DNA from: a virus
Length of the DNA: 64,000 nucleotides
Virus record (IMG/VR): IMGVR_UViG_3300034374_005666
Span: 1 to 64,000 of that record
Strand: one strand, 5' to 3'
Below, piece by piece: positions 26,201-64,000 of this stretch (within the stretch, counting starts at the first letter, position 1; every line of letters begins with the position of its first letter). The position numbers and the translations under genes are program-made. The notes below the pieces were generated by a model. That model was given only the letters and a program-made list of their open reading frames with translations. It was not told the origin of the DNA and searched no databases.

Positions 26201-29200
26201 AAGATGGCTAAAAAAAGACCTTCAGTCATTGTATCTAATATTAAAGAACTGAACGAATTAGATAATGAAGTTAACCATATAGTAAGTTCAAGTAGTATTG
26301 TAGGTAGACGTCTTACAGACTCTGGATGGCATAGAGTGAATATAGATGGGACTAAGCATTATCTGAGAGATGTGTTTGTACCAGAATATGATGATCTTGG
26401 ATTTATTAAAATGCATGAAGGATCAAAAATCTATGGTGATTTACAGTATAAGCTAGGAGACTCTGCCAGTCCTAAAAACATGATGGATAGGTTGAATAAT
26501 CTTCAAGACTATCATTATAAGTTTTTACTGAGTAAGCTGGATAGTGCTTTAGCTACTGAGCTATGGTATTATGTTGGACAAAAGAATCAACCTGAGTTTA
26601 ATGATATTGTAAATGTAGATGGTACATATGGTATACGTTCTTCTGGTACAGATAATGTACTAAACAAGATTCTCAATGATAGCTTTGATTATTTCTCAAA
26701 CAGTAACTACTATGATAATGGAGAAGTAAAAAATGCTGATAGGATTAAAGCTCTAGTCGATAAGGTCAGAAAGAGTGAAAGCCCAGATGCTATTGTAGAG
26801 CTTAACAATATGTTGTTTGGTCTGGATAATAATGTTCTATTGAACATGAATGTAAATGATTATCTAACTCAAATGACTAATGCAGCTCTTGCTATTGCTG
26901 ATGGAAACTTAGACTTTAACAATAGACAGTTTAAGAATTTCTTTAAAATTGTAGCTGAAAAATATCCTGTAAGCTTTCAATCTTCACATATTAACATAGA
27001 AGGTGAGAAGATATTTGAATGGATTAATAGTAGCTTCTTAGGCAAAATGGTTGCTAAGCTCAAATCTGGTGAGTTCAATTGGGATTTCTATCGCAATGAT
27101 CCTATGTACAGTCGTCTAATGGATAAAGGTGTAATTGACCCAAGAGTATGGGCTAAAGCCAGATGGTCTATCATAGGCGGTGTTAAGCACAATAAGAAAG
27201 GAGCAGGTGTAACATACAATAACTTCTCTGATAAAGATTCTGCCATAGCTTTGTATACAATGGTTAAAGAAGGCTGGTACAATACCAGTATTCTATCTGA
27301 TGCTCCTGTAATGACTGCTATTAATCTTGGCAAAAAGAGTACAACAGAAGCTGTCAATGATCTGTTTGAATTAGCCATAGCTGAAGATATTAGAAATAAG
27401 AATATAGATAAGCATAAGTCCAAGTTTGGTAGATATGCAGCTGAGTTCAGTTTCTTTGAAGGAGATGAAATGCCTACTAAGTCTGATATACAAAGACAGA
27501 TTAAAGAAGAAGCTGATAAACTTGAGCGTAAGTTTATGGAACTTGGATTGATTGAGGATGGCAAGATGGTTATAGATGGTTCTACAATAGATACATCTAT
27601 TATGCAGAATCTTGTAGCTAACTATATTCTCAATGAAGCACAGATTATTCTAATGACTCAAGGTGATCCTGCATTCTATAAAGGTTCTGCTGATTTCTTT
27701 AAAAGAGCTAAAGAGGTATGGTCACCAGGTAACTACATGGATACTACAGCTAGTTACGAAGCACCTGATGGTACAGTAACTACCTATCCCAGCAATGGAA
27801 AGTATAATGTAGGTATACTAAAAGATATTGAAATGCCTAGCCCTCAGCTTGAGGAGATGAGAAAAGCACTTGCAGGCAGAGATCAAGATACTATTGACAG
27901 GATTACAGCAGCTTATGGATATAGCAATGATAAAGATGAAAAAGGCAAGCCTATAGTCAGACTAAGTGATGGGTCTGTTGTACCTACAAAGAATCCAAAC
28001 TTGGCAGATGCACAGGGTATTATAGATATACTGACCTACAAGATGAGGCTGCTTGGTGAAAACAGATGGTCACATGCTAAAGAGTTTGCATATAGGCTTA
28101 TTACTCAAGGTATCAGTCCAAGATCAAAGAACCTACAGACTGAGATAGATGCATTTACTACAGACCAACAGATTAGAGATGAGATTAAGAAAGAACTAGG
28201 CAGTATTGTATTCCAACCTATTAAACCTTTCTATTTTGCACATCATTTGTTGAATAATGTACTTGTATATCCTGTACAAAACAAAGACTCTGAGTACCTG
28301 CTTACACCTATGTTTGCTCAAGGTAACCCTGAACTGGAAAGTGTACTGACCAAGATGGGATATACTAAAACTGATACAGGTTGGGTATTGGATGTAGAAG
28401 GTAGAATGAATGGTAGATATGTAGATAAGTTTGTATTTGAATCAGGTATTAAAATCCCACTTGGAGATCAAATATCTACTCTTGAAGACATAGATGATAC
28501 CAAGTATGTTCAATTCAATTGGTCTGATTACAGAAGGCAGATGGAAACACCTGCAAACTACGTTGATACAGATAAAAATTTTGGTACTCAGATTATGAAG
28601 TTGATATTTGCTGACGTAGAAACTGAAGACCTGCTTGAAGCTAAGAGAGAATATAATAGGTTAATCCAAGAAGACATACGCAGATCATTGTCTGAATTGA
28701 AGAACAGACTGTATAAAGAAGGTGAGTTAGATACACAGGCTGTAGTTAATATACTTAGAGAGGAAGTACTTGAAAGAGGTCTGTCTGACCAATATATAGA
28801 AGCACTTGAAGAAAATACACTGGATGCTATTGAAGGAGTAAATACTAAACTGCCTTTGTACCATCCTCTGCATAGCTATAGAATAGAAGCTATCATTAAT
28901 AGCTTGTACAAGAACAGAGTGACTAAGCAAAAGTTTCTGCAAGGTGTAGCACTCTATAATGTTTCCAGCTATGGTCTGTCCAAGAAGCCAAAGATTGTAT
29001 ATGAGAATGGGCGTATTAAGCATATCCAAGCATATGCTCCTGTCTATACTAAAGCACTGGAGAAATACAGACTGGAAGATGGTACTATAGATATAGATAC
29101 CATACGTGAGCAAGCTCCAGAAATGCTTGAAGGTTTAGTATATAGAATACCTACAGAGGATAAATATTCTATGTTTCATATCGAAATTATTGGTTTCACT

Positions 29201-32200
29201 GATGATGCCTCTGGTGGTGGTATTATACTCCCACCTGAAGTTACTACTATAGCTGGTCTGGACTTTGATATTGATAAAGTCTATGGTTTCTTTAATGCTG
29301 TTGACAACCCATATGATAAAGCTATAGCATCTATAGAGAGAAGAATACAATCTGAATTTGACAAGACAGATATTACAAGCCTAACTGATGAGGATTGGAA
29401 TAATGTATTTGATAAACTGTATGAAGATAGAGCTGAATTTGAAGCAGAAGTTAGACAGGTTATTGCTGATGATATTGCAGGTAAAGGTAAGTATGAGAAA
29501 CTAAAAAGAAGGCAAAAACAGTGGCAAGCTAAAGCTGATTCAGATAATAGAAAGCTTGAGCTAATGAGACAGGTACTCAGCCATAAGAGTATGATTGAAA
29601 ATATATTGACTCCAGGTGGCTTTGAACAAATTAGGTCTGTGTCAGATGTAGTTAAGAAAGCACAAGGTATATCTGATGACTTGTCTATTAATAAGATGAC
29701 AGATATTATATCTGTTATCAGACGTATGAATACTGGTAACGCATTGATTGGTATTGCTGCAAACTATAACGTAGCAAGAGCACTATGGCAAGGGCATGAT
29801 ATTAGTTTGGATTCAGGCTTTATGTTTGATGGTCAAATGTATACTGATCTATCCAGTGTTACTAGAAATGGTATTAGACCTGGCAGATCAATTGCAGAAA
29901 GTTTGGCTGCTGCTGCAGATAATGGAAAAGATCCATTGGCTGAGTTTATAAACCTGAATACTTATACAGCTGACTTAGCACTGACTATGCTTGCTACTGG
30001 TATGTCTATAGAAACTGTAGCTCTGTTTATGAGCCAGCCTATAGTTAAGCAGTATGCTAATTACTACTTCAATAACGATCAGGAAGAAGCAGGTCTGCCT
30101 ACTATGTCTGAAGTGGATGAGGAGTTTCAACCTCATCCTTTAACTACAGAAGAGCTTGAGAAAGGATTAGATGAAATGGATATTAATGCTCCTTATGATC
30201 CAGATGCTATAGTACCTGAGTTGCAGCTTAAAGTTATTGAGAACTTTGTGCATTATATGCAAATAGCTAAGCCAGTAAGTATGCTTGTAGGCAGAACTAA
30301 AATACCTGATTCTGGTACAGGCCCAACTCAGGCTGATAATGTAGATAGCATAGTTAAATATGATGAAGCTAAAATACCTGATCCAGATCTTAACAGTATA
30401 GCTATGATTAATGGAGCTACTGATTATTTGCGGGCTAATACTTTTATGAATACTTTTTACGAGTCTACATTTCCTGAAGTACAGGAAGTATTTAAGAGTC
30501 TTGGATTTCCTAAACTTACAAGAGGTTCAAGCTTCTACAGAGTAATGGATAAGCTCAAAAATATTAGTGGTGATTTCTTGAGTGCAAATGAGATTAACAG
30601 ATTACTTACACACTTTTTGGATTATCTATCTTATGGCTTTGAGACTTACAATCCATCAAATCTTGTAAATCTGAATGAGACTGTAAAAGATCAATTATTT
30701 AAGTATAAGAAGTATCTTAAAGACAATAATCTGAAGAATGACTTTATAGATAGATTGAGTTTTAAAGATGGAGCTATTCAGTTCAATGGTATTATAGGTG
30801 TTGAATCTACTGAAGAAACATACCTGCGTAATCTATGGTATGAGATGCTGTCTAATAATGAGTCTGTAGATGGATTTACTGTAGCTGATTTAGCTAATAA
30901 CCTGATTAAGTACAGCTTCTTTAGAACTGGTTTTAGATTAGCTGGTAAGAAAGGCTTTAGCCACTTGCATCCTGTTGGTTACTATGCTACACTTGTAGAC
31001 AGTAATGGGCAGAGCTTCAATCAGTATATCACTAAACAAATACAGAGCAATAATGGTAATGATCCAGCACATGATGTATTTGTAGAGCAGTATATCAGAA
31101 ACAATTATAGAAACCTGAGCTATGTACCTTTTGTTGAAGTAGAGCAAGGTCAAGAACCTCTGTATGACCCAGGTCATAAACAATACATAAAGACTAATAA
31201 AGGTTTATACAAAGTTAATCATGTAGAAAGAACAGTTAAGTTTATACCTGATCTTGGACAATACTATCAAGCTCCACTTGATCCTATGGATATAGTTATG
31301 GGAGCTAAACCTAAAGAACCAGTTGAATTGTTTAAAGAGTATTATCCAAGAATACCTGCACCTACAAGTGTATTCAATAAGAAAGCTGTACCTATTGAAA
31401 AGGTCAAACCTGAGATTAAACCTATTATTCCAGTAGCACAACAATCTCAACCTGTACAAGAGACTACTACAGTAAAGCCTACTCAACAACCTGTAACACA
31501 ATCTACTCCTGTACAGTCCACAGTTAAAGAAGGAGTTTCTGAAGTATTCAATCAAACTCCTAAACTATCTAGTATAGGCACACAAGAACAATATTCTCAA
31601 TATTTAGATACTATATTTCCTGATAGTAAAGTGAAAGATATTGTTTATCATGGTTACAAGTTAATAAAAGATGATTTGAAAATTGAAAAATTTGATAAAT
31701 CAAAAGCCCCCAAAGGTTTTTATTTTACTACAGACAAAGATTATGCTAAAAGTTTTACTGAAAAATATACTAATGTAAAAGAATCTGGAATAATCAGCGC
31801 CGTTTTAAATTTAACTAATCCTAAAAAACAAAAAGATTTATTTAGAACAAATCCTAAAATAGCTACTATTGAAAATAAAGATGGTTTTATTGGTAATGAT
31901 ATGGGTTTTGAAAAAGAAAATGTTTTTGTAGTATTTGAACCAGAACAAGTTCACATATTAGGTTCTAAAAAAGATATAGAAGGATTTAAAGAATTTGTCA
32001 ATCAAACTCCTGTACAAAGTTCTTCAGAAGGACAACAAACTATTCAGAAACCTGTACAAACAACATCTGTTAGTAAGAAAACAGGTATGTTTAATCCTTC
32101 TGATAAAACATTAAAACCAGGTGCAGTAGTAACTTACAATAACAAGAAGTATATTCTGTGGAATATCAACAATGCTAATAAAGCTCAATTGATACAGACA

Positions 32201-33253
32201 GATGGTACTAAGTTCAGTGGTACACCTAATCTGGATAAGTTAACAGTAGATGGTAACTATCCTATAGCAAACTATAATGGTACAGATTATATAGTAACTA
32301 ACAACGGTAATATTTATTCATTAGCTAATGGTAATCGCAGATGGACATCTGATGCTCAAGCGAGTATAGATGCAAGAAATAGTATCTATAGCCAAGTAGG
32401 ATATACTGAAGTACAAGAGCAGTTTAAAAATTTAACTACTATGACTAATCAAATATACTCTAAATTAAATGATAAAACTCAATCTGAAAATGTAGTTATT
32501 GATAAAGTAAATGGTAGAAAACCTGCTATTGAAAAAACATTTAAAAGAGGGGATATTTTTGAGTTTCAACTTGAACAATATCAAATTGAAAGAGTAACTG
32601 ATGCTGGTTTTGATGTTAGAAACATGCAAACAGGAGATATTGATTTTATAACAAAAGAAGACTTTAATTTAGAGAACCAATCTTCCAAACCAATAATAGC
32701 ATATAGAACAAGAGGTAATAATTTTTTAGAGGCATTAGAAAAAGATAATGCTATAGGTAATCCTTGGAATAGTAGAGGTTATGGTTTATATAAAACTGAT
32801 AGTGTAGAGCAAAGTGTTAAGGAATTTATAGCATGGATGATCGGAGAAAAACATACTGACAAACTTCAAGATTATAGACAAGAAATACTTAACAATCTTG
32901 ATAAGATGAAAGGTATTACTATTATGTACTATCAAGAACTTAATCAACCTAGTCATGCTACAGCTTTAGACTATTTGATTAATAAGTACGACTGGATTAT
33001 TCAGCCTGTACAAGAACAATCTACTCAAGAACAAACATGGGATACTCTTGATGTACAAGATATGGGTACAGAGTCTACAGTAGAAATTATAGAAACTGCA
33101 TGGTTGAATTATTCAAAGCGTATTCAAGATGCAAGAAGAGCTGCTAATTTAGAATTAACTACCTTTGAACAGTTTAAAGCTACTGCTGAAAAAATGATAA
33201 AAAATCAAGGAGTAGAGTTCTTTCAAAACAAACTAAAAGAGTGTTACTCATGA
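20225..33253 (+). CDS. giant virion-associated RNA polymerase polyprotein (crAss-like)
   Basis: Catalytic GLDFDIDK (DFDID at 29261-29275), RIPT, ADAQG and DNGKDP motifs; zincin motifs HELVH (23138) and HEAAH (25334). Confidence 0.9.
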   Translation: MSKRRKEEVTPPTFNEVVQQLSKGRIDDTGLNQIQGRPVPQQTEFDLEETGQTWADQSATEVRDQMAANQPNSRAIANSLFQIGTTIAGDTVAGIGYLGELKDIQDIVAGTETEWGNWLTNIGDNIKEWGQDVAPVYASESAMQGFKPWDGEWWATNIPSIGSTFALMLPAAGAAGITSKLLGRAGNAAKIAGRLSSTQKVLPGISAAVTSRHIENMMEGKEVFDTVYNKAIQAGKSDPEARKIAGNAASQSYNTNYINLLTDIPQYLAAGGFFGKLAGGTGKKAIGKELLSSVGQESIEEAMQFVISKEAERTGVLDIEGKDEDGTNFGQRLTGYLQDPQLWTASFFGALGGGMFTAGSRAIEKTVDLMTTDPAERQDKAMMNLVEDAIDKGDFDQLKAAVAEMRKANPEDLGMSPEVYNKNLDKLDQLAKHAESFYSSAPAEFREEATKLGVKAKKLELDKIDTQTQIEAIKANVSDTKAFDAYMNELQLAALSNNTSKQAKEYKAQLEKSLEDVEYNKSDFAAYSSQMRQAAKKMAISSVEAMKTNEELMKYETLEGQQEIAKAKAKQAEAKAKQEYQEALAKAEQATTPEEIENSPITDEDKGRLFSEKLVQDKKNIAQAIRAIPKNSIESREQAESLADSILSETPFLNSQLDSSRRNDLVNKLLQEYGQAKTQKEVQSQQEQTPQKSSRIEEIPEGAQSYYTRRNGQREDVSKRTDANKGAGWYRQNGTRVGDSDYINEATENYFSESKQTKTSSTTGDNINKRVSTIYNNDFVSERNSVVYVGNKFKIQVFKELFKTNYIVSVAVKDSSTSTGFRVRKDMSKEFSTMDQALEYADRVASKDTLTQTSPTQKDDIEKRRREELEYWQAEDRQKKIKEGREITKKVLKNLKKKYPSTTLQGIVIRLLEKIIDFNTFAIINSEGLKLPGGKDATKFGALATGEGMAMRQDRIDALLEGNVDAVKTFIHELVHTFTKEKVGEYQMEKSGLIPGYKAKLTEKEKKALTELERIYNKVKQQFPSSTEYGLTNLDEFLAEAFSNYSFQATLKELKSEGKKTSLFKEWLNAISDLFYESLVKWSKRFNKPIPQKSEIIGILEDIMGWTEDLIGEELLKLEVTTEEINAKYDAELAFLETQVPTQQDIAEGVVDQEATDILNADPVQEIFDNKDKAEAQEEVEEQVENTTEDEPQTIGPYDNPEQGGDLLGTSREAEAEPNVAVFHDIAMAMLLPNGKYKLYGYGKPWLEYTEEQLSDYILPKVEGKSQPLKYKANNNPVPTEWQSKYLNSESNLEMVRAFAESMPDWRDREVFIEINDDTYKDNANEIKMHLIMVRDDTKKVYLGLLRNPANTADSVKLAAIREQIYAEYVAQGKPEMFRSGLTTRLSQVSTGRVWNTNQRNKPADVLGDDLIAGIGITAGETTELVTNGTDIRRGSGRVAPVNNPTAGGVYLAVDSADGGQIWYRAFTKRLDSESYIQENELPVFEEIFGYEQVTYLEAIRRLLGVAQSNPDLWKNRWSDIRNEIRSIVRFNNKGKIQPDFRANFAEFLNEKHEGSIDNYLTSLNTRFNFYGLPLQVDSRKINTGNYNELILNNRVEIDVNPDQHTHSTQFSVDLDSVELGVVEKQDFENDFEGESLDGISLQLGGEPIGTKEQAVAYLESILPNVPVHIIDKTLRIGNQEVFGYFSNAGITLLRNAGLNTAKHEAAHIVFEFGLSEREQRRLLEQAKSSFSLTKDDLDRARLALSKLNSNRTPEQYALIEKIMEEFETYTISGDTSLAGRVKSIFKRLLEYLKMVFTNRISLDGFYYRIDSGLYKNIDLSSVSSNYQPAFKLHGFRSEAERQTRVKSTVSMLDRIIKSIADVDKISIDDAYRKALADLDNVFTGDMLKYGGSIKQRIEKRATKVNKPESFNLYLSAIENADFRQSVLAKMSTRGIKVKFEPEDISTENEDAVENWQKSVFQYSQLKSMSARLRRALSVLPVLKTPTVDVLTKMAKKRPSVIVSNIKELNELDNEVNHIVSSSSIVGRRLTDSGWHRVNIDGTKHYLRDVFVPEYDDLGFIKMHEGSKIYGDLQYKLGDSASPKNMMDRLNNLQDYHYKFLLSKLDSALATELWYYVGQKNQPEFNDIVNVDGTYGIRSSGTDNVLNKILNDSFDYFSNSNYYDNGEVKNADRIKALVDKVRKSESPDAIVELNNMLFGLDNNVLLNMNVNDYLTQMTNAALAIADGNLDFNNRQFKNFFKIVAEKYPVSFQSSHINIEGEKIFEWINSSFLGKMVAKLKSGEFNWDFYRNDPMYSRLMDKGVIDPRVWAKARWSIIGGVKHNKKGAGVTYNNFSDKDSAIALYTMVKEGWYNTSILSDAPVMTAINLGKKSTTEAVNDLFELAIAEDIRNKNIDKHKSKFGRYAAEFSFFEGDEMPTKSDIQRQIKEEADKLERKFMELGLIEDGKMVIDGSTIDTSIMQNLVANYILNEAQIILMTQGDPAFYKGSADFFKRAKEVWSPGNYMDTTASYEAPDGTVTTYPSNGKYNVGILKDIEMPSPQLEEMRKALAGRDQDTIDRITAAYGYSNDKDEKGKPIVRLSDGSVVPTKNPNLADAQGIIDILTYKMRLLGENRWSHAKEFAYRLITQGISPRSKNLQTEIDAFTTDQQIRDEIKKELGSIVFQPIKPFYFAHHLLNNVLVYPVQNKDSEYLLTPMFAQGNPELESVLTKMGYTKTDTGWVLDVEGRMNGRYVDKFVFESGIKIPLGDQISTLEDIDDTKYVQFNWSDYRRQMETPANYVDTDKNFGTQIMKLIFADVETEDLLEAKREYNRLIQEDIRRSLSELKNRLYKEGELDTQAVVNILREEVLERGLSDQYIEALEENTLDAIEGVNTKLPLYHPLHSYRIEAIINSLYKNRVTKQKFLQGVALYNVSSYGLSKKPKIVYENGRIKHIQAYAPVYTKALEKYRLEDGTIDIDTIREQAPEMLEGLVYRIPTEDKYSMFHIEIIGFTDDASGGGIILPPEVTTIAGLDFDIDKVYGFFNAVDNPYDKAIASIERRIQSEFDKTDITSLTDEDWNNVFDKLYEDRAEFEAEVRQVIADDIAGKGKYEKLKRRQKQWQAKADSDNRKLELMRQVLSHKSMIENILTPGGFEQIRSVSDVVKKAQGISDDLSINKMTDIISVIRRMNTGNALIGIAANYNVARALWQGHDISLDSGFMFDGQMYTDLSSVTRNGIRPGRSIAESLAAAADNGKDPLAEFINLNTYTADLALTMLATGMSIETVALFMSQPIVKQYANYYFNNDQEEAGLPTMSEVDEEFQPHPLTTEELEKGLDEMDINAPYDPDAIVPELQLKVIENFVHYMQIAKPVSMLVGRTKIPDSGTGPTQADNVDSIVKYDEAKIPDPDLNSIAMINGATDYLRANTFMNTFYESTFPEVQEVFKSLGFPKLTRGSSFYRVMDKLKNISGDFLSANEINRLLTHFLDYLSYGFETYNPSNLVNLNETVKDQLFKYKKYLKDNNLKNDFIDRLSFKDGAIQFNGIIGVESTEETYLRNLWYEMLSNNESVDGFTVADLANNLIKYSFFRTGFRLAGKKGFSHLHPVGYYATLVDSNGQSFNQYITKQIQSNNGNDPAHDVFVEQYIRNNYRNLSYVPFVEVEQGQEPLYDPGHKQYIKTNKGLYKVNHVERTVKFIPDLGQYYQAPLDPMDIVMGAKPKEPVELFKEYYPRIPAPTSVFNKKAVPIEKVKPEIKPIIPVAQQSQPVQETTTVKPTQQPVTQSTPVQSTVKEGVSEVFNQTPKLSSIGTQEQYSQYLDTIFPDSKVKDIVYHGYKLIKDDLKIEKFDKSKAPKGFYFTTDKDYAKSFTEKYTNVKESGIISAVLNLTNPKKQKDLFRTNPKIATIENKDGFIGNDMGFEKENVFVVFEPEQVHILGSKKDIEGFKEFVNQTPVQSSSEGQQTIQKPVQTTSVSKKTGMFNPSDKTLKPGAVVTYNNKKYILWNINNANKAQLIQTDGTKFSGTPNLDKLTVDGNYPIANYNGTDYIVTNNGNIYSLANGNRRWTSDAQASIDARNSIYSQVGYTEVQEQFKNLTTMTNQIYSKLNDKTQSENVVIDKVNGRKPAIEKTFKRGDIFEFQLEQYQIERVTDAGFDVRNMQTGDIDFITKEDFNLENQSSKPIIAYRTRGNNFLEALEKDNAIGNPWNSRGYGLYKTDSVEQSVKEFIAWMIGEKHTDKLQDYRQEILNNLDKMKGITIMYYQELNQPSHATALDYLINKYDWIIQPVQEQSTQEQTWDTLDVQDMGTESTVEIIETAWLNYSKRIQDARRAANLELTTFEQFKATAEKMIKNQGVEFFQNKLKECYS

Positions 33254-57870: not shown

Positions 57871-59160
57871 CTAATTTTGAGACAGCAATACTCTGCTATC
57901 GTAATGTCCAACAATATTCAAGTCATGCTCTTGGATTAATTCTCCACGCATGCCTTTTTCTTTCTTTAACTTATCAAACCATTTTTCTTCAAGAGTACCT
58001 TGGGTGACTATAAAGTACAGATTAGCTACACCTTCAACCCATCTGATTCTAGCTCTACGTTGTTCCATATTATGCCACTTAGAGCTATAGCTGAAGAAGA
58101 TAATATTCTGCACTCCTTCCAATGTAATACCTTGTTTAAGCATTTTACTGGAAGCAATAACAGGTTCTTCTCCACTATTGAATTTTTCAATCAACTCTAG
58201 CGCATTATCTGATCTGACTACAGGGCATATATTCTCTAGTATATCAAGACGTTCACCAAATATGAGTGTCTTACCAGATAGTGTACTCAGTAAAGCTTTT
58301 GTTGTAGCTACTTTGGACTTCAGATTGTACAGAAAGGTAGTTAATTCTCTACCAATAGCCATCTTAAGATACTTTGGTTTACGAAAATCCTTTCTGAAGT
58401 TATCTTTCTTTAGATAATACTCTTGCTCTGTACCTAATGTATCATAGCTCTTCCATATCTTGATTGATCTGTCTTGAGTATCCAGATGGTGATTGATTAT
58501 CCAAGTTTGATACTTAGCAATCATACCTTCTTCAATAGCCTGTTTAGTCTCTACTTTGTATACTACAGGAATATACATAGATAGCAATTGCCCCTTACTA
58601 ATAAACTCTGTAATCTCTCCTCTTTTAGTTTCTGCATCTGTCTGATAAATTGTAAGAAGGTCAGCATTATCCTGTATGTCTTGAGGATATACGTGCTGGT
58701 CTAAAGACATAGCTCCAGTCAATGCAACAACATGCTTACACTTGTTGTTTATTATATTCTCACTATACTTAGCTGACAAGCCATCTTGAATTTCATCTGC
58801 TACCAGTAAACCTATGTTTTCAAAGTTATTAAACTCTTCCACAGGCATAGCTTGATAGCATCTGAACTGAATGTTAAAATCAGCTACAGGGTCTTTATCA
58901 AACAGGCTTTTAAACTTAGGTATTTCATCTTCAAACAATGTCTTTTCACGTACTATAGTCTCTGCCAGAAATACAATAGTATCTCCTTTATTGATCTTTC
59001 CATCTTCCAGCAATCTATATGCAGCCTTCAGGGAAGCTATAGTTTTACCAGCACCAGGAAACAGCATCCATGTACCTACATAGTTATTTTGTACCCAAGC
59101 TTCTACAGCTTGGTCTTGATGGTAATTCAGTCTTTCTATATTTCTTTTCATAGTCTGCAT
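57871..59160 (-). CDS. superfamily 2 helicase
   Basis: Q motif, PGAGKT, DEIQ, LTG, QGI and QRRAR. Confidence 0.85.
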   Translation of the reverse strand: MQTMKRNIERLNYHQDQAVEAWVQNNYVGTWMLFPGAGKTIASLKAAYRLLEDGKINKGDTIVFLAETIVREKTLFEDEIPKFKSLFDKDPVADFNIQFRCYQAMPVEEFNNFENIGLLVADEIQDGLSAKYSENIINNKCKHVVALTGAMSLDQHVYPQDIQDNADLLTIYQTDAETKRGEITEFISKGQLLSMYIPVVYKVETKQAIEEGMIAKYQTWIINHHLDTQDRSIKIWKSYDTLGTEQEYYLKKDNFRKDFRKPKYLKMAIGRELTTFLYNLKSKVATTKALLSTLSGKTLIFGERLDILENICPVVRSDNALELIEKFNSGEEPVIASSKMLKQGITLEGVQNIIFFSYSSKWHNMEQRRARIRWVEGVANLYFIVTQGTLEEKWFDKLKKEKGMRGELIQEHDLNIVGHYDSRVLLSQN

Positions 59161-59285
59161 ATTATTCTGTTGCTTAAAGTTAAATCAATTGCTCTATCTG
59201 GAATAGAGTATGCTGTTCTATTGTAATACTTGTATTCATATCTAAATAAAGGATAAAAGAAACAGTAATATTTTAGATATAACAT
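59148..59285 (-). CDS. array micro-ORF A (45 aa)
   Basis: MLYLKYYCFFYPLFRYEYKYYNRTAYSIPDRAIDLTLSNRIICRL*. Confidence 0.75.
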   Translation of the reverse strand: MLYLKYYCFFYPLFRYEYKYYNRTAYSIPDRAIDLTLSNRIICRL

Positions 59286-59404
59286 AGTATTCTGTTTGAA
59301 ATTCTTCTGGCTCGAAAGCCAGCTCTTGTCCACCCAGCAGCATTAAAATGAAATAAATCTATATAGCTTGCTTTTTTGTAAAGTTTAGTCTTTATAAGTA
59401 GCAT
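59273..59404 (-). CDS. array micro-ORF B (43 aa)
   Basis: MLLIKTKLYKKASYIDLFHFNAAGWTRAGFRARRISNRILCYI*. Confidence 0.75.
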   Translation of the reverse strand: MLLIKTKLYKKASYIDLFHFNAAGWTRAGFRARRISNRILCYI

Positions 59405-59535
59405 AGTATTCTATTTGATAAAGCATCAAGACCTGATATATCCCACTCATAAACTTTAACCCAATCTTCTGGTTCTTCCCTATAACGGTTAGCCCATACT
59501 AACCTAGTACCATAAATCATATTTATACAAAACAT
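59392..59535 (-). CDS. array micro-ORF C (47 aa)
   Basis: MFCINMIYGTRLVWANRYREEPEDWVKVYEWDISGLDALSNRILCYL*. Confidence 0.75.
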   Translation of the reverse strand: MFCINMIYGTRLVWANRYREEPEDWVKVYEWDISGLDALSNRILCYL

Positions 59536-59663
59536 ACTATTCTATTTGATGCAAACTGATAGTTTACTTGGCTCCAATGTTTGACACAAGTAATTGTGTG
59601 GTCTAGATAAACTGATGACCATCTAAAATTATAACTATCATAAAGTTTATTTAACAGTAACAT
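59523..59663 (-). CDS. array micro-ORF D (46 aa)
   Basis: MLLLNKLYDSYNFRWSSVYLDHTITCVKHWSQVNYQFASNRIVCFV*. Confidence 0.75.
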   Translation of the reverse strand: MLLLNKLYDSYNFRWSSVYLDHTITCVKHWSQVNYQFASNRIVCFV

Positions 59664-59800
59664 ACTATTCTTATTGTGTTGTCTGAAGGTGGTATGAATC
59701 TACTGTAGTAAGGGTCTTCCCGTTCTTCATGGTAAAACACAGATCTGTAGTTACTATGACAGTAAAAAGTTATTGCTGTAACTATTTCTATATTACACAT
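59651..59800 (-). CDS. array micro-ORF E (49 aa)
   Basis: MCNIEIVTAITFYCHSNYRSVFYHEEREDPYYSRFIPPSDNTIRIVCYC*. Confidence 0.75.
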   Translation of the reverse strand: MCNIEIVTAITFYCHSNYRSVFYHEEREDPYYSRFIPPSDNTIRIVCYC

Positions 59801-59925
59801 AATATTCTATTTGTAATAAACCAAGCTCCTGCATGGCTATAAAAATCATGGAAATCCCATCCTGGTTCAAATGACCAGTCATATACGTGCTCACCATATA
59901 AAGCAGAGTGATTTAAAATATACAT
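59788..59925 (-). CDS. array micro-ORF F (45 aa)
   Basis: MYILNHSALYGEHVYDWSFEPGWDFHDFYSHAGAWFITNRILCVI*. Confidence 0.75.
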   Translation of the reverse strand: MYILNHSALYGEHVYDWSFEPGWDFHDFYSHAGAWFITNRILCVI

Positions 59926-60053
59926 ATTATTCTATTTGTAAATCCGTTATCGTGATATTCCATTATACTTAATATTGCTACATACCTATACGTAGTCCAG
60001 TAATAATGATCTAATACTATAAATCCATATGTTGTGTAACTTATATGTAGCAT
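59913..60053 (-). CDS. array micro-ORF G (46 aa)
   Basis: MLHISYTTYGFIVLDHYYWTTYRYVAILSIMEYHDNGFTNRIICIF*. Confidence 0.75.
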   Translation of the reverse strand: MLHISYTTYGFIVLDHYYWTTYRYVAILSIMEYHDNGFTNRIICIF

Positions 60054-60181
60054 ACTGTTTTGAATGTTTGTACTCTGTTTAATCTTCTAATAAACCAAAG
60101 AATCAGCCTATATTTAAAAGAAAACCTTGTTTTATGTATATAGTTAACTCCTTTAGGACTAACTATCATTATACGTAGCAT
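60041..60181 (-). CDS. array micro-ORF H (46 aa)
   Basis: MLRIMIVSPKGVNYIHKTRFSFKYRLILWFIRRLNRVQTFKTVCYI*. Confidence 0.7.
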   Translation of the reverse strand: MLRIMIVSPKGVNYIHKTRFSFKYRLILWFIRRLNRVQTFKTVCYI

Positions 60182-60291
60182 ACTGGCCTAATTGTGTCTA
60201 TTCTTATAAATAAAGTAATTGGAAACCATCTATTAGAAAAAGAACACTCAAAGTTATAGTTCAAGCATTGTTTAAATCCTAGTTTTCGCAT
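60169..60291 (-). CDS. array micro-ORF I (40 aa)
   Basis: MRKLGFKQCLNYNFECSFSNRWFPITLFIRIDTIRPVCYV*. Confidence 0.65.
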   Translation of the reverse strand: MRKLGFKQCLNYNFECSFSNRWFPITLFIRIDTIRPVCYV

Positions 60292-60323
60292 GTGCGTATA
60301 TTGTTTATATTATTCTGAATACC

Positions 60324-60331
60324 TATGTTTG
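60324..60331 (+). promoter_or_regulatory. Bacteroidetes -7 promoter element for the inverted phosphoesterase
   Basis: TATGTTTG ending 18 nt before the ATG at 60350. Confidence 0.5.
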
Positions 60332-60349
60332 TTGTAAACAGAATAACTT

Positions 60350-61165
60350 ATGCAGATCAATAAGATTAATGATCTATACATGGAAATACGTATTCCATAC
60401 AGATCAATGAGGACTTCTTCCTATTTTCATTTATGCTCAGATGTTCACTTCGATAATCCAGACTCAGACCAAAAGCTCTTCTTTAGCCATCTGGACAAGA
60501 TTAAAAGCCTTAATGGTAAAAGCTTAATCTTTGGTGATTTCCTCTGTTTAATGCAGGGAAAATACGACCTGCGTAGTGATAAATCTAAGATCAGACCAGA
60601 GCATAACAAGAGCAATTATCTTGATGCTGTACTTGACGATACGGCGGATAAACTCAAACCTTACAAAAAGACTTTGGGTATGATTAGCTTAGGTAATCAC
60701 GAAAGCCGCGTTATTGAAAGAAATGAAATTGATCCATTGCATAACTTAGCATTACGTCTCAAAGGACTAAATACTATGGGTTATCATGGATTTATAAAGT
60801 TTATCTTTCACAACAATGGTTCTAAAGTAAGGTCATGTCTTCTCTATTTCCATCATGGTAAATGGGGCAGTATAACCAGTTCAGTTAATAAACATGGACT
60901 TTCTGTACCACAAGCAGATATTATTGTCTCAGGTCACACACATTCTGAATTTTATGTACCTGTACCTAGATTAAATCTGCGACAAAATGGTGAAGTAAGT
61001 ATTACTAAACAGCATCACATTAAGTGTGGTACTTATAAAGATGAGTTTTTGACTACTAAAGGTTTTGGAGTAGAAAGAATAGCTGTACCTAAGAATATAG
61101 GTTCATGGCTACTCAAGCTTACACCTACAGAAAAAGATGTAGATATTAAGTTTGAGTCTATGTAA
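60350..61165 (+). CDS. calcineurin-like metallophosphoesterase
   Basis: SDVH, GD, GNHE, HHG and GHTH motifs. Confidence 0.9.
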   Translation: MQINKINDLYMEIRIPYRSMRTSSYFHLCSDVHFDNPDSDQKLFFSHLDKIKSLNGKSLIFGDFLCLMQGKYDLRSDKSKIRPEHNKSNYLDAVLDDTADKLKPYKKTLGMISLGNHESRVIERNEIDPLHNLALRLKGLNTMGYHGFIKFIFHNNGSKVRSCLLYFHHGKWGSITSSVNKHGLSVPQADIIVSGHTHSEFYVPVPRLNLRQNGEVSITKQHHIKCGTYKDEFLTTKGFGVERIAVPKNIGSWLLKLTPTEKDVDIKFESM

Positions 61166-61304
61166 TGCAGATTATTCTATTTGTTAACCAATAAGACCTT
61201 TCTAAGAAATTATCATGGTAAGGCCATTTGTTCCAATCAGCTAATTCAGCTTCAAAATCTTCATGGTTGTAGTAAAGAAATAAACATTCATTTACATGTA
61301 ACAT
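61158..61304 (-). CDS. array micro-ORF J (48 aa)
   Basis: MLHVNECLFLYYNHEDFEAELADWNKWPYHDNFLERSYWLTNRIICIT*. Confidence 0.75.
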   Translation of the reverse strand: MLHVNECLFLYYNHEDFEAELADWNKWPYHDNFLERSYWLTNRIICIT

Positions 61305-61438
61305 ATCATTCTCATTGTAGTATTGCTGTTAAGCACAGCATGTATAATCTTACGACTTTCTAGTATTGCATCTATTCCCTCAAACAAATTATCAAAAGTT
61401 TCAAACAGAATAAATCTAAAACAATTTATAGTATGCAT
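61292..61438 (-). CDS. array micro-ORF K (48 aa)
   Basis: MHTINCFRFILFETFDNLFEGIDAILESRKIIHAVLNSNTTMRMICYM*. Confidence 0.7.
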   Translation of the reverse strand: MHTINCFRFILFETFDNLFEGIDAILESRKIIHAVLNSNTTMRMICYM

Positions 61439-61560
61439 ATAGTACGTATTGTAGTGTCTGTATATCCAAAGTTTCCACCATAAACAAAAGAGTATTTAAA
61501 TAAATTACCCATTGACAAATAGCATGTGTATGCTTTAATACAATTGAGTAGTTTTATCAT
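61426..61560 (-). CDS. array micro-ORF L (44 aa)
   Basis: MIKLLNCIKAYTCYLSMGNLFKYSFVYGGNFGYTDTTIRTICIL*. Confidence 0.7.
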   Translation of the reverse strand: MIKLLNCIKAYTCYLSMGNLFKYSFVYGGNFGYTDTTIRTICIL

Positions 61561-61724
61561 ACTTCAAACGTTTTATTCCACACATACACTAGTATGTGAT
61601 AGAATCCATCATTCTTAGCTACTATATAGTAACCTTTCATATCTGTAACTAATCTTTCTAATTCAATCTCAAGCATATATGCAGGTATAACTGCAATATA
61701 TGCACCATTCAAGTCTTCCAGCAT
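61557..61724 (-). CDS. 55-aa non-family ORF inside the array
   Basis: MLEDLNGAYIAVIPAYMLEIELERLVTDMKGYYIVAKNDGFYHILVYVWNKTFEV*; ATGA overlap with L; no CxX* end. Confidence 0.55.
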   Translation of the reverse strand: MLEDLNGAYIAVIPAYMLEIELERLVTDMKGYYIVAKNDGFYHILVYVWNKTFEV

Positions 61725-61734
61725 TTGTTTACTA

Positions 61735-61863
61735 TTATAAGTGACATAATATTCTTATTGATTGGTCATCTATTCTCATTGCCATTACCCAATGATTATT
61801 GCTGTATTCAAAATTATAAGATGGAAATTTTGGATAGCTTATAAGCCGTTTTATACATAGCAT
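61735..61863 (-). CDS. array micro-ORF N (42 aa)
   Basis: MLCIKRLISYPKFPSYNFEYSNNHWVMAMRIDDQSIRILCHL*. Confidence 0.75.
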   Translation of the reverse strand: MLCIKRLISYPKFPSYNFEYSNNHWVMAMRIDDQSIRILCHL

Positions 61864-61982
61864 AATATTCTGTTTGATTTGTCTCGTATTTCTAAAGAAG
61901 TATTTATAAAAACATTATCTTCATACCATTTATAACTGTATGAGTCATATACTTTTGTTATACATTTTATTATAGTTGACAT
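61851..61982 (-). CDS. array micro-ORF O (43 aa)
   Basis: MSTIIKCITKVYDSYSYKWYEDNVFINTSLEIRDKSNRILCYV*. Confidence 0.75.
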   Translation of the reverse strand: MSTIIKCITKVYDSYSYKWYEDNVFINTSLEIRDKSNRILCYV

Positions 61983-62089
61983 ATTATTCTATAGTTTGTG
62001 TATCTTTGTCTCAAGTATTTAAGTGCAAAAGACTGGAATTTAAAATTGAGTAAGTAATGACGAGTACCTTTTGCTATAAATGACAGCAT
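61970..62089 (-). CDS. array micro-ORF P (39 aa)
   Basis: MLSFIAKGTRHYLLNFKFQSFALKYLRQRYTNYRIICQL*. Confidence 0.75.
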   Translation of the reverse strand: MLSFIAKGTRHYLLNFKFQSFALKYLRQRYTNYRIICQL

Positions 62090-62214
62090 ATTCTTAATGA
62101 TTCATCTAAACTAAAGTGAAGAAATACACCAAACTTTTGATCTAATAAAATCTCTTTATGAGAGTATGTTATCCAAAGTCTTGTATAGGTTAAAAAAGTC
62201 TTTATATGTAGCAT
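62074..62214 (-). CDS. array micro-ORF Q (46 aa)
   Basis: MLHIKTFLTYTRLWITYSHKEILLDQKFGVFLHFSLDESLRICCHL*. Confidence 0.75.
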   Translation of the reverse strand: MLHIKTFLTYTRLWITYSHKEILLDQKFGVFLHFSLDESLRICCHL

Positions 62215-62339
62215 ATAACTCTATTTGTGCTGCTAAGAAAGCTTACATACTTGTTCTTATCTATATTGGTAAAGAAACGTGCATTAAAGCTAATCAACTG
62301 TTTGTTTATAAATGACTCATAAAAAATAATTCTTAACAT
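62202..62339 (-). CDS. array micro-ORF R (45 aa; first in transcription order)
   Basis: MLRIIFYESFINKQLISFNARFFTNIDKNKYVSFLSSTNRVICYI*. Confidence 0.75.
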   Translation of the reverse strand: MLRIIFYESFINKQLISFNARFFTNIDKNKYVSFLSSTNRVICYI

Positions 62340-62349
62340 AGTTCAGCAT

Positions 62350-62390
62350 AAATTAAAGAACCCTGACATCCAATTAAGGACATCAGGGTC
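62350..62390 (-). terminator. hairpin/terminator immediately upstream of the array
   Basis: - strand CCCTGATGTCC-TTAATT-GGATGTCAGGG (two G-U pairs) followed by TTCTTTAATTT. Confidence 0.6.
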
Positions 62391-62425: not shown

Positions 62426-62710
62426 TTAGTCGTACATCTCCATGTTACGCTCAGTAAATGGGTTGTATTCCCGTGCAATGATATTCTCATGTACACCTGC
62501 TGGAACTTGTACAGCTCCATGAGGTTCACGTACTTGAGAGTGACCTTTTACAGGTACTTCATGGTTGATTACGCTGTCTACAGTAGTCTGATACAAGAAA
62601 TTGCTCAATGGAGCATCGCCTTTGATAGTGATTTTCTTCTTCACTACTGGCTGTGCTGATTTCAGTACGTGCGCATGTGTACCTTCAGCAAGAACTAATT
62701 TGTGATTCAT
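62426..62710 (-). CDS. His-rich small protein of the type that accompanies DUF6745 genes
   Basis: LAEGTHAH...INHE...H..VPAG...REYNP. Confidence 0.65.
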   Translation of the reverse strand: MNHKLVLAEGTHAHVLKSAQPVVKKKITIKGDAPLSNFLYQTTVDSVINHEVPVKGHSQVREPHGAVQVPAGVHENIIAREYNPFTERNMEMYD

Positions 62711-62753: not shown

Positions 62754-63494
62754 TTAAGTCTGCTGATTAATGAGCTTAAAGAACTCATCTCCAGACAAAT
62801 AGTAAGGTGTGACAGGTTTTAGCTCAGAACTATCTTTAACATCGTAAGTAACTGTATAGACCTCACCTTGACGATTGATCTCTTTAATCTGCTTTTTGTC
62901 GTGTGTGATTTCACACAGCCAAGCTACTGCGTCTTTGACAGAATAGCTACCCTGCTGGCAAAAGTTTTCTCTGTCATCTACAGTTGCCCAATACTCTCTG
63001 TGAGTAGAAGGACACCAGAACTGAATAGCAAACACATCTCTACGCCTGTCTTCAAAGCCTAGTTCTTTTGGGCTGATAGACCATAAATGATATGTATCAC
63101 CTATGTTAGACTCCCTGTTATCAGGCTCAAAGTTGAAAGTATCTACTTTCTTTTTGTTCTCTATATTATTGAACATTTGAGCAGGCCCAATATAGAAGAA
63201 AGCAATACGGCGCAGGTCTATATTCTCAATATGACTGGCTGCCTTAAAGTCAATAGCTTCTACTGAAGCCCAAATATCATCTAAGAAGCTCTTTAGCTCC
63301 TCCAGTGCCTTATTGTAAGCATTAATATGCTCCATGTTAAGATTCGTACCTTTGATCTTCTTAGGCTCAAAGATGTCTGTTTCTTCTCTGTACATTTCAG
63401 CTGTAGTATCATATCTGGCTTTCATAATGCTACAGAACATATCAAACTTGATAGGCACATTGTCGATTGTAAAACTCAGTTTGCTAGGATTCAT
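62754..63494 (-). CDS. DUF6745-like protein
   Basis: ENIDLRR...CPSTHREY...DAVAW. Confidence 0.6.
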   Translation of the reverse strand: MNPSKLSFTIDNVPIKFDMFCSIMKARYDTTAEMYREETDIFEPKKIKGTNLNMEHINAYNKALEELKSFLDDIWASVEAIDFKAASHIENIDLRRIAFFYIGPAQMFNNIENKKKVDTFNFEPDNRESNIGDTYHLWSISPKELGFEDRRRDVFAIQFWCPSTHREYWATVDDRENFCQQGSYSVKDAVAWLCEITHDKKQIKEINRQGEVYTVTYDVKDSSELKPVTPYYLSGDEFFKLINQQT

Positions 63495-63498
63495 AGAC

Positions 63499-63999
63499 TT
63501 AATCTTTTTTAGTTACATACTCTACACATACTTCAAGAAAGTTACCAATCATGTCATACAGACCATATTTATTTGGCATCTTGGTTCCAGGCAGTGCAGG
63601 TTTTTGCCCACTATTACCAGGATGGACAGCTACTGCATCAAGACCATGCTCTTTAATCTGGTCTTCTGCATCTGCTTTAAGGAACTCCCACTCATCTACT
63701 GAGGGAAGTCTAAAGCCTTTCACATTAATATCTGATAGAAATACCCCATCATCATTAATGACATATGGTAATTCAGGTAATCCAAGAAAAACATTATATT
63801 CAGCAAATGTTTTGTCTGCATGTTCGTGATTAGCATCCATCTCACCTACTTTAGTAACTTCAGTAAGCCAGTTTAGATAGTGACACACGTCAATATCTCT
63901 GATATTAGCTACTGGTAGATTTCCCCTACCAAAGCCTGAATCTGACGGGAGTGTACGTCCTGTAGCAATACAGAACTTAGCCCATTGATTATGGCTAGT
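63499..63999 (-). CDS. FGE-sulfatase (SUMF1/EgtB/PvdO-like) domain protein, 5' partial
   Basis: Frame is open to the window edge: PSDSGFGRGNLPVAN...YLNWL...GFRLPSVDEWE...PNKYGLYDMIGNFLEVC. Confidence 0.8.
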   Translation of the reverse strand, partial: TSHNQWAKFCIATGRTLPSDSGFGRGNLPVANIRDIDVCHYLNWLTEVTKVGEMDANHEHADKTFAEYNVFLGLPELPYVINDDGVFLSDINVKGFRLPSVDEWEFLKADAEDQIKEHGLDAVAVHPGNSGQKPALPGTKMPNKYGLYDMIGNFLEVCVEYVTKKD

Positions 64000-64000
64000 A

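Follow-up and report, generated by a model that had tools for sequence, protein, structure and literature searches.

Same-strand genes chained by overlaps in the -1 frame are known from phage operons, where translation is coupled through ATGA or TAATG. In Flavobacterium johnsoniae, adenines at 0, -3, -6, -12 and -13 promote initiation that is independent of a Shine-Dalgarno (SD) sequence; position -9 is not among the determinants (PMC6847099). The window analysed here is a 64,000-nucleotide (nt) stretch of viral DNA (positions 1 to 64,000 of IMG/VR virus record IMGVR_UViG_3300034374_005666) and is part of a 103,255-bp crAss-like phage genome. It contains arrays of chained miniature open reading frames (mini-ORFs) whose ends share a 27-nt repeat, and we regard it as reasonably likely that this repeat is a dual-coding translational-coupling cassette in arrays of real mini-protein genes.

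The arrays resemble the ATGA/TAATG operons in being same-strand genes chained by -1 frame overlaps, and one of the units, M, has a plain ATGA. They differ in that 27 nt are repeated 26 times and also encode a conserved protein tail. The overlap is 13 nt and not ATGA, because the codon lying over the TG of the start codon is Cys and not a stop. With the SD-less starts of F. johnsoniae the repeat shares A at -3, -6, -11 and -12 and the lack of a G-rich SD, a pattern also found at the other genes of the phage, but it has C at -13, its initiation region lies inside the preceding ORF, and its conservation is tighter than a generic A-rich leader needs. Promoter-early stem-loop (PeSL) cassettes, reportedly described by Arbiol and co-workers in 2010 from the hyperplastic small-ORF regions of T4-type phages, have in common with the present arrays small and fast-evolving early ORFs, a repeated separator, and gain or loss of units at that separator. 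Unlike the PeSL cassettes, the arrays have no intergenic space, no sigma-70 promoter and no conserved stem-loop, and the repeat codes in two frames.

Arrays of chained mini-ORFs

The genome carries three arrays, two of them inside the window. Sizes are in amino acids (aa).

59148..60291, minus strand: array 1, nine chained mini-ORFs (units A-I) of 40-49 aa, running into a helicase gene
61158..62339, minus strand: array 2, nine chained mini-ORFs (units J-R) of 39-55 aa, covering the interval 61158-62214
66008-67205 of the genome, beyond the window, minus strand: array 3, nine mini-ORFs, running into the DNA polymerase gene

Across 1242 in-frame codons the 27 units are free of stops, whereas the other two frames have 131 and 143 and the opposite strand 81-103; the mini-ORFs are coding. 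A metagenome contig (L141) carrying the third array of a sister strain, about 5-15% diverged, allowed the unit bodies to be compared. The proportion of synonymous differences (pS) was 0.232 and that of nonsynonymous differences (pN) 0.062, giving a pN/pS of 0.27. The mini-ORFs are thus real protein genes under purifying selection. Tyr is found in the bodies of 22 out of 26 units and Trp in 19 out of 26. The bodies have no residual nucleotide similarity to one another; the units are therefore old, and the likeness of their ends, described below, is not due to recent duplication.

The three arrays have 24 junctions between units, and at nearly all of them stop and start codons overlap on the same strand, as in translationally coupled genes: the overlap is 13 nt long at 21 junctions, 16 nt at one and 4 nt at another, the remaining junction being a gap of 10 nt. 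The units to which the text refers are as follows.

60041-60181, minus strand: unit H of array 1, with the Lys codon AAA at the Arg position of the tail
60169-60291, minus strand: unit I of array 1, with the Arg codon AGG
61158-61304, minus strand: unit J, the last of array 2, with no unit downstream
61292-61438, minus strand: unit K, overlapping J by 13 nt
61426-61560, minus strand: unit L, overlapping K by 13 nt
61557-61724, minus strand: unit M, 55 aa, lacking the tail (it ends FEV*), with an ATGA overlap into L
61735-61863, minus strand: unit N, followed by the 10-nt gap, unit M starting 10 nt past the N stop
61851-61982, minus strand: unit O, overlapping N by 13 nt
61970-62089, minus strand: unit P, overlapping O by 13 nt
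62074-62214, minus strand: unit Q, overlapping P by 16 nt
62202-62339, minus strand: unit R, overlapping Q by 13 nt

No unit follows J because J converges on a plus-strand gene at 60350-61165.

Searches of ten units against Pfam and PHROGs gave no family, and a search of the ESM Atlas with the mini-proteins gave no match. An AlphaFold2 model of one unit, built with an alignment of the 26 paralogues, reached a pLDDT of 55, too low to be informative. A profile search with the unit family matched only strain variants of the same phage, and exact-motif scans of IMG/VR returned only lone chance matches or unrelated repeats. Related loci were not found in a helicase-based locus search, nor did blastn of the region against GenBank phages give a match.

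The 27-nt junction repeat

When the units are aligned at their stop codons, the last 27 nt of 26 units read wCA AwN AGA ATA nTA TGY nnn nTA TAA. Conservation is sharply limited to positions -27 to -1 and has no codon periodicity. Positions -23, -22, -15 and -10 to -6 vary freely, in contrast to the fixed wobbles at -25, -19 and -16. A weight matrix built from the 26 sites scores them at 18.5-35.6 bits, and the best match elsewhere in the 103 kb reaches 12.9 bits. Matches above 8 bits outside the arrays number 4, as compared to 3.6 in shuffled sequence, and the weight-matrix scan placed the repeat at no other gene of the genome.

Read in the frame of the upstream unit, the repeat encodes a C-terminal tail whose residues are numbered here backwards from the stop. 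Residue -8 is Thr in 16 units, Ser in 8, and Asn and Glu in one each. Neither Arg(-6) nor Cys(-3) changes in the locus of a sister strain or in variants from the databases. Four junctions of array 2 depart from the common pattern in an informative way.

61158..61184, minus strand: junction of unit J, ACA AAT AGA ATA ATC TGC ATT ACA TAG, encoding TNRIICIT*; ATC replaces the ATG
61426..61452, minus strand: junction of unit L, ACA ATA CGT ACT ATA TGC ATA CTA TAA; the AGAATA core is replaced and the Arg is kept as CGT
61735..61761, minus strand: junction of unit N, with the full motif; its ATG opens an ORF of only 12 codons
62074..62100, minus strand: junction of unit Q, ending in AGA ATA TGC TGT CAT TTA TAG, with SLRICCHL* as the end of the unit; the ATG lies one codon earlier and there are two Cys

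At the last junction of array 1 the ATG (59160) is the start codon of the helicase gene. In the polymerase-proximal unit at genome position 66008 the motif ATG is followed by TAA.

Three other explanations of the junctions were tried and rejected. A hairpin promoter of the N4 type is disfavoured since the copies do not all preserve the TATG..CATA palindrome, at which the rise in pairing is marginal; the junction palindrome as a whole is weak and inconsistent between copies. Programmed -1 frameshifting into a polyprotein was set aside since inspection of the aligned junctions by eye, with no pattern scan made, found no slippery heptamer and the ATG is conserved. Hypermutation of the junctions does not fit either, their divergence (8.3%) being similar to that of the bodies (6-9.5%).

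Selection on the peptide and on the nucleic acid

A first-pass annotation, made from the letters of the window alone, had proposed that the tail is a peptide motif under selection in its own right, over and above the DNA overlap. The observations behind this proposal are confirmed. Most units do overlap the next ATG by 13 nt; unit J, with ATC for ATG, still ends TNRIICIT; unit Q, with its 16-nt overlap, keeps Cys at -3 in RICCHL; L and I encode the Arg by CGT and AGG, and H has Lys (AAA) in its place, so that all three keep a positive charge; and residue -8 alternates mainly between Thr and Ser. It also holds that more than the ATG overlap is needed to account for the motif. Support for the interpretation is partial, and a conserved peptide tag at a gene overlap cannot be taken at face value.

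The part of the interpretation that fails is the appeal to synonymous and conservative change. Synonymous change is nearly absent from the tag. With codon use in the bodies of the same units as reference, Thr is ACA in 16/16 cases (52% in bodies, P = 3e-5), Ser is TCA in 7/8 (30%, P = 1e-3), Arg is AGA in 23/25 (63%, P = 1e-3) and Ile is ATA in 20/20 (67%, P = 4e-4). In the Thr/Ser, Arg and Ile codons the third base is conserved as strongly as the first two. The conserved Tyr of the bodies, on the other hand, is TAT in 18 and TAC in 4 cases, the usual ratio of the genome; Tyr thus varies synonymously where the tag residues do not, and conserved residues outside the tag are free in their choice of codon. 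The series of Ile, Leu and Val at -4 follows automatically, since any nTA codon is aliphatic. Residue -5 is I, T, P, M, V, S or A among units and database variants and is therefore not conservative at the protein level.

The frozen wobble bases are read as the initiation signal of the next unit. The next ATG lies one base back from the upstream frame, and the wobbles of that frame consequently fall at -3, -6, -9 and -12 from the start. Adenine is found there in 22/26, 24/26, 7/26 and 24/26 junctions, respectively, and the wobbles at -12, -6 and -3 would be held as A because of where they sit. An internal control is provided by Ile at residue -7, whose wobble is position -9 from the ATG: it is ATA in 6/11 cases as compared to 20/20 at residue -5 (one-sided hypergeometric P = 0.003). 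Furthermore, A is found in 23-24 of 26 junctions at both -11 and -12 and in 18/26 at -14. The junctions thus have the marks of SD-less initiation in Bacteroidia, namely no SD, enrichment of A at -14 to -11 and A at -3 and -6, except that -13 is C in 23/26, this being the second base of the Thr/Ser codon. The 78 long ORFs of the phage also lack an SD, with 52-62% A at -14 to -11, 55% A at -3 and low G. In another crAss-like locus (L058), with arrays of unrelated junction sequence, A peaks at -12 (0.82) and -6 (0.69), not at -9 (0.36).

The conserved bases other than A, namely C at -13, G at -7, T at -4 and T at -1, all occupy second codon positions. In other start regions of the phage C makes up 4% at -13, T at -4 and G at -7 make up 17-18%, and T at -1 makes up 40%. 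That C at -13 is rare at other starts yet conserved here points to selection on the peptide, and the best explanation for the conserved C, G and T is that they encode Thr/Ser, Arg, Ile and an aliphatic residue. In this respect the first-pass view of a peptide motif over a DNA repeat stands, in that C at -13 and T at -4 fix Thr/Ser and Ile although uncommon in other start regions.

The Cys is a different case. Since the TG of the ATG fills the first two positions of its codon, only Cys, Trp or a stop is allowed, and the arrays of three other loci (L055, L057 and L058) have TGA (ending the protein), TGG (LWN*) or TGY (LCx*) at this codon. Unit M is the TGA case in the present window, its stop TGA lying over the TG of the ATG. 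The Cys is therefore largely a consequence of the overlap. TGG was never seen in this lineage, the probability of TGY in 26/26 on base composition being ~3e-4 by a rough estimate, and Q and J keep the Cys where the ATG is moved or lost; Cys, or a pyrimidine at +4, may itself be under some selection. The tail resembles a CaaX box in having a Cys near the C-terminus with aliphatic residues on both sides. A CaaX box, however, would have its Cys at -4, whereas here it stands at -3, the two residues at the very end vary, and the Cys codon is set by the overlapping ATG. We know of no prenylation machinery in such hosts. Nor does the tag, R-x-x-C-x-x without Pro, match the FGE substrate motif CxPxR.

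Comparison to the sister strain bears on the same question. The junction-encoded ends (first five plus last eight codons) have a pS of 0.128 and a pN of 0.087, so that relative to the bodies pS is about halved and pN is not reduced, the opposite of what selection on the peptide only would predict. By our own tally, the ten variable positions of the motif account for 13 of the 18 substitutions at junctions. The rate comparison, made with one sister strain, thus upholds selection on the unit bodies and goes against a tail conserved as peptide only.

Under the dual-coding reading, the upstream frame of the repeat would specify the C-terminal strand with which unit n ends (Thr/Ser, x, Arg, Ile, aliphatic, Cys, x, x, stop). 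The frame one base back would provide the start codon and first four codons of unit n+1 (M-L-x-I), and the 14 nt before the ATG would act as an SD-less, adenine-rich initiation region of the Bacteroidia type. The second codon positions C, G, T and T would fix the residues, the wobble A's at -12, -6 and -3 would serve the next start, and this lineage would have fixed TGY at the codon over the TG of the ATG. Selection is at both levels, on the protein (Thr/Ser, Arg, aliphatic strand) and on the nucleic acid (start, stop, A at -3, -6 and -12). Ribosomes are predicted to reinitiate at the junctions, and the tail is probably needed for the function of the mini-proteins, plausibly by docking to a partner protein.

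Several points weigh against this reading. Three junctions whose ATG is not a unit start keep the motif, namely those of J (ATC), N (the 12-codon ORF) and the unit at 66008 (ATG TAA), and there a pure initiation role leaves the frozen wobbles unexplained. The C at -13 conflicts with the published preference of F. johnsoniae for A. Ahead of the ATG the RNA is predicted to be only slightly more accessible (0.54-0.64 compared to about 0.50). The orthologue test comprises one sister strain and 18 junction substitutions, and we infer a Bacteroidota host solely from crAss-like kinship and start-site composition.

Alternative explanations

If only the C-terminal octapeptide were selected, the DNA identity would have to come from common descent or from gene conversion between the 27-nt repeats. 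J would fit, since its ATG is lost through a synonymous change (ATA to ATC) that leaves TNRIIC intact, as would Q, which holds its Cys at -3 despite the shifted ATG, the charge-preserving CGT, AGG and AAA codons, and the constancy of Arg(-6) and Cys(-3) in every strain variant recovered. Recombination between the repeats is also real. Alignment of L141 1-2231 with genome 65780-68110 shows exactly one unit missing from L141, with breakpoints inside the junction repeat, which suggests that the repeats also mediate gain and loss of cassettes. Conversion would, however, homogenise the whole tract, yet positions -23, -22, -15 and -10 to -6 vary while -25, -19 and -16 are fixed. The units are old, with no residual DNA similarity between bodies, residue -5 is not conservative in the protein, and half-motifs are present in non-coding DNA, in the spacer at 60292-60349 described below. 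We therefore find a pure peptide tag quite unlikely. The same indel, together with a unit at genome 66761-66919 in which a hypervariable patch has been replaced within sequence otherwise near-identical to L141, and with an inverted phosphoesterase gene flanked by motif copies, could mean that the repeat is kept mainly as a cassette boundary, for gain, loss and shuffling of units by integrase-free homologous or annealing-type recombination. Any repeat recombines, so selection for this purpose is not required, and a boundary role does not explain why wobble A is held at -3, -6 and -12 but not at -9. With a single indel observed, we consider this account very unlikely. The repeat is also unlike the attC sites of integrons, being 27 nt long and coding.

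A pure nucleic-acid signal, with the peptide incidental, would be an early promoter of a virion RNA polymerase or the binding or cleavage site of a regulator (cf. T4 RegA/RegB). The repeat has the size and sharp bounds of phage RNA-polymerase promoters, its 26 copies lie in the early (replication) module, and it is kept where the ATG is unused. Arrays 2 and 3 start right behind a hairpin and T run (that of array 3 found by eye), with no TAnnTTTG -7 box between either hairpin and the first ATG. The early promoters of the virion polymerase of crAss-like phages are not yet known (bioRxiv 10.1101/2020.03.07.982082). On the other side, junctions are far more degenerate in the analogous arrays of G003, L055 and G002, so that a sequence-specific site is not general, the motif is at no other gene, the 75 sigma-70-like promoters are about as many as shuffled sequence would give (72.5), and the charge-keeping changes of the Arg codon are left unexplained. 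A signal of this kind strikes us as rather improbable. The dual-coding reading accommodates both the adenines at -3, -6 and -12 and the residues fixed at second codon positions.

Neighbouring genes and the divergent spacer

Arrays 1 and 2 are separated by a divergent spacer and an inverted gene, and further genes and a hairpin flank the arrays.

57871..59160, minus strand: SF2/SNF2-type helicase, 32% identical to g056 of Cellulophaga phage phi14:2, starting at the last junction ATG of array 1
60292..60349, no strand: divergent spacer of 58 bp, with one half-motif per strand
60350..61165, plus strand: calcineurin-like phosphoesterase or repair-exonuclease-like gene, inverted between arrays 1 and 2
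62359..62390, minus strand: intrinsic-terminator-like hairpin, directly upstream of array 2
62426..62710, minus strand: 94-aa gene with no function assigned, between the 246-aa gene and array 2
62754..63494, minus strand: 246-aa protein of no known family, with homologues beside a truncated lectin scaffold
63499..64000, minus strand (full gene 63499-64140): truncated FGE/C-type-lectin scaffold, 213 aa, ending 9 residues past GNFLEV and lacking RGGSW...GFR

The minus-strand half-motif is AGAATAATAT (60316-60307), 15 nt ahead of the unit I start codon, and the plus-strand one is CAGAATAA (60339-60346), 3 nt ahead of the ATG at 60350. Outside the arrays CAGAATAA occurs only 11 times in the genome, two of these being within the spacer. 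A TAnnTTTG box, resembling the -7 box of Bacteroidota, is found at 60324-60331 on the plus strand just upstream of the plus-strand half-motif, and its position would place this half-motif in the predicted mRNA leader, which fits a role in initiation. The arrangement suggests that arrays 1 and 2 were once joined by a junction, at which the phosphoesterase gene was then inserted or inverted.

Intrinsic-terminator-like hairpins number 16 in genome 57001-72000 (L006) as compared to 5.2 in shuffles, about threefold. A possible host-type promoter box, TATATTTG, is present at about 62742 on the minus strand. Homologues of the 246-aa protein adjoin the scaffold in L060, L082, G002, G003 and G005 and have a conserved FC(K/Q)(K/Q)GSY...AVAW...RQGE pattern. 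Just upstream of array 3, a 169-aa protein (genome 67255-67764) has a weak match to a cell-wall hydrolase (Hydrolase_2), and a homologue is located between array and DNA polymerase in L057, L058, L062 and L082. An Rfam search of 15 kb gave a tRNA-Sec match at genome 69030-69116 (minus strand) of 32 bits against a gathering threshold of 47; it lies outside the arrays and was not called by ARAGORN. Elsewhere in the window, an ORF of 4342 aa at 20225-33253 and its neighbours of 1038-1634 aa are probably the giant virion proteins of the crAss type, including the virion RNA polymerase.

Arrays in other crAss-like phages

Searches based on the DNA polymerase yielded 148 related loci. Chained mini-ORF arrays are located upstream of the polymerase in L055, L057, L058, L060 and L062/L082, whose polymerases are 32-34% identical, and closer relatives of this phage lack them. 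Units in chains of at least four number 54 in G003, 44 in G002, 27 in the present genome (G000) and 0 in the complete relatives G006-G009. Most junctions of the distant arrays are plain ATGA, and in G003, L055 and G002 the junction DNA is far more degenerate, with varied Leu and Ile codons. Comparison of the units of this phage with those of L058 and L055 by hhalign was not significant, and the distant arrays are therefore called analogous and not homologous. The long non-coding early regions of phi14:2 (L167 1279-1983 and 2905-4601) contain no chained mini-ORFs. The highly transcribed non-coding regions of phi14:2 lie upstream of the DNA polymerase, as do arrays here.

A truncated lectin-type gene beside the arrays

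In a neighbour search, homologues of the 213-aa and 246-aa proteins were found only in array-bearing loci. A truncated FGE-sulfatase domain adjoins the arrays in G002, G003, G004 and G005 and ends at profile position 188-191 of 255 in the Pfam model. The truncated scaffold is thus present in 5/5 array-bearing phages with enough sequence (this genome and four records, two of them close kin). None of five complete relatives has it; four of these were obtained in full and are array-free, and the fifth was scanned only within 10 kb of its polymerase. Further short stand-alone homologues from the databases are cut off at this same profile position. In G004 (L168 1489-2190) and G002 (L169 1489-2190) there is also a complete FGE-sulfatase domain protein of 233 aa, covering profile positions 3-254.

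The closest solved relative of the scaffold is TvpA of Treponema denticola (PDB 2Y3C), with a sequence E of 2e-8 over residues 154-232 of 294. The scaffold model has a pLDDT of 76, and its best fold match is again TvpA (E 9e-4). The segment missing from the scaffold is about 50-65 aa, the size of a mini-protein, and the scaffold thereby also lacks the C-terminal part that holds the catalytic cysteines in human FGE. Units of L058 and L055 begin MxLxxxxxGGSY and end in a hydrophobic strand, and they align in the predicted register, though weakly, to the RGGSW...GFR tails of full-length FGE proteins (hhalign P 0.007-0.08). It is conceivable, though doubtful, that the mini-proteins are free C-terminal, ligand-facing modules of an FGE-type lectin, whose junction-encoded ends dock into the truncated scaffold at 63499-64140. 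The units of this phage gave no significant alignment to FGE tails, which weighs against such a split lectin.

Variable proteins of diversity-generating retroelements, TvpA among them, offer a comparison. The scaffold has the same FGE-type lectin fold, and the part it misses carries the variable region of TvpA. The difference is that the reverse transcriptase PF00078 is absent from G000, G002, G003, G004 and G005 and that there is no template-like similarity among units; diversity takes the form of separate mini-genes.

Implications

The junction is a worked example of dual coding, in which two reading frames and a translation signal share the same bases and the load is divided by codon position. 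Its 26 replicate start sites are a natural test bed for initiation on the SD-less ribosomes of Bacteroidota. We found no published description of such mini-gene arrays in the literature searched, and within that scope the arrays are an undescribed feature of crAss-like phages that travels with a truncated lectin-fold gene. Arrays of 27 to >50 mini-genes take up to about 7% of the genome in several distant crAss-like lineages. If the mini-proteins do serve as modules of a split lectin, they would make up a hard-wired library of binders in a crAss-like phage without reverse transcriptase, a new viral route to binding diversity.

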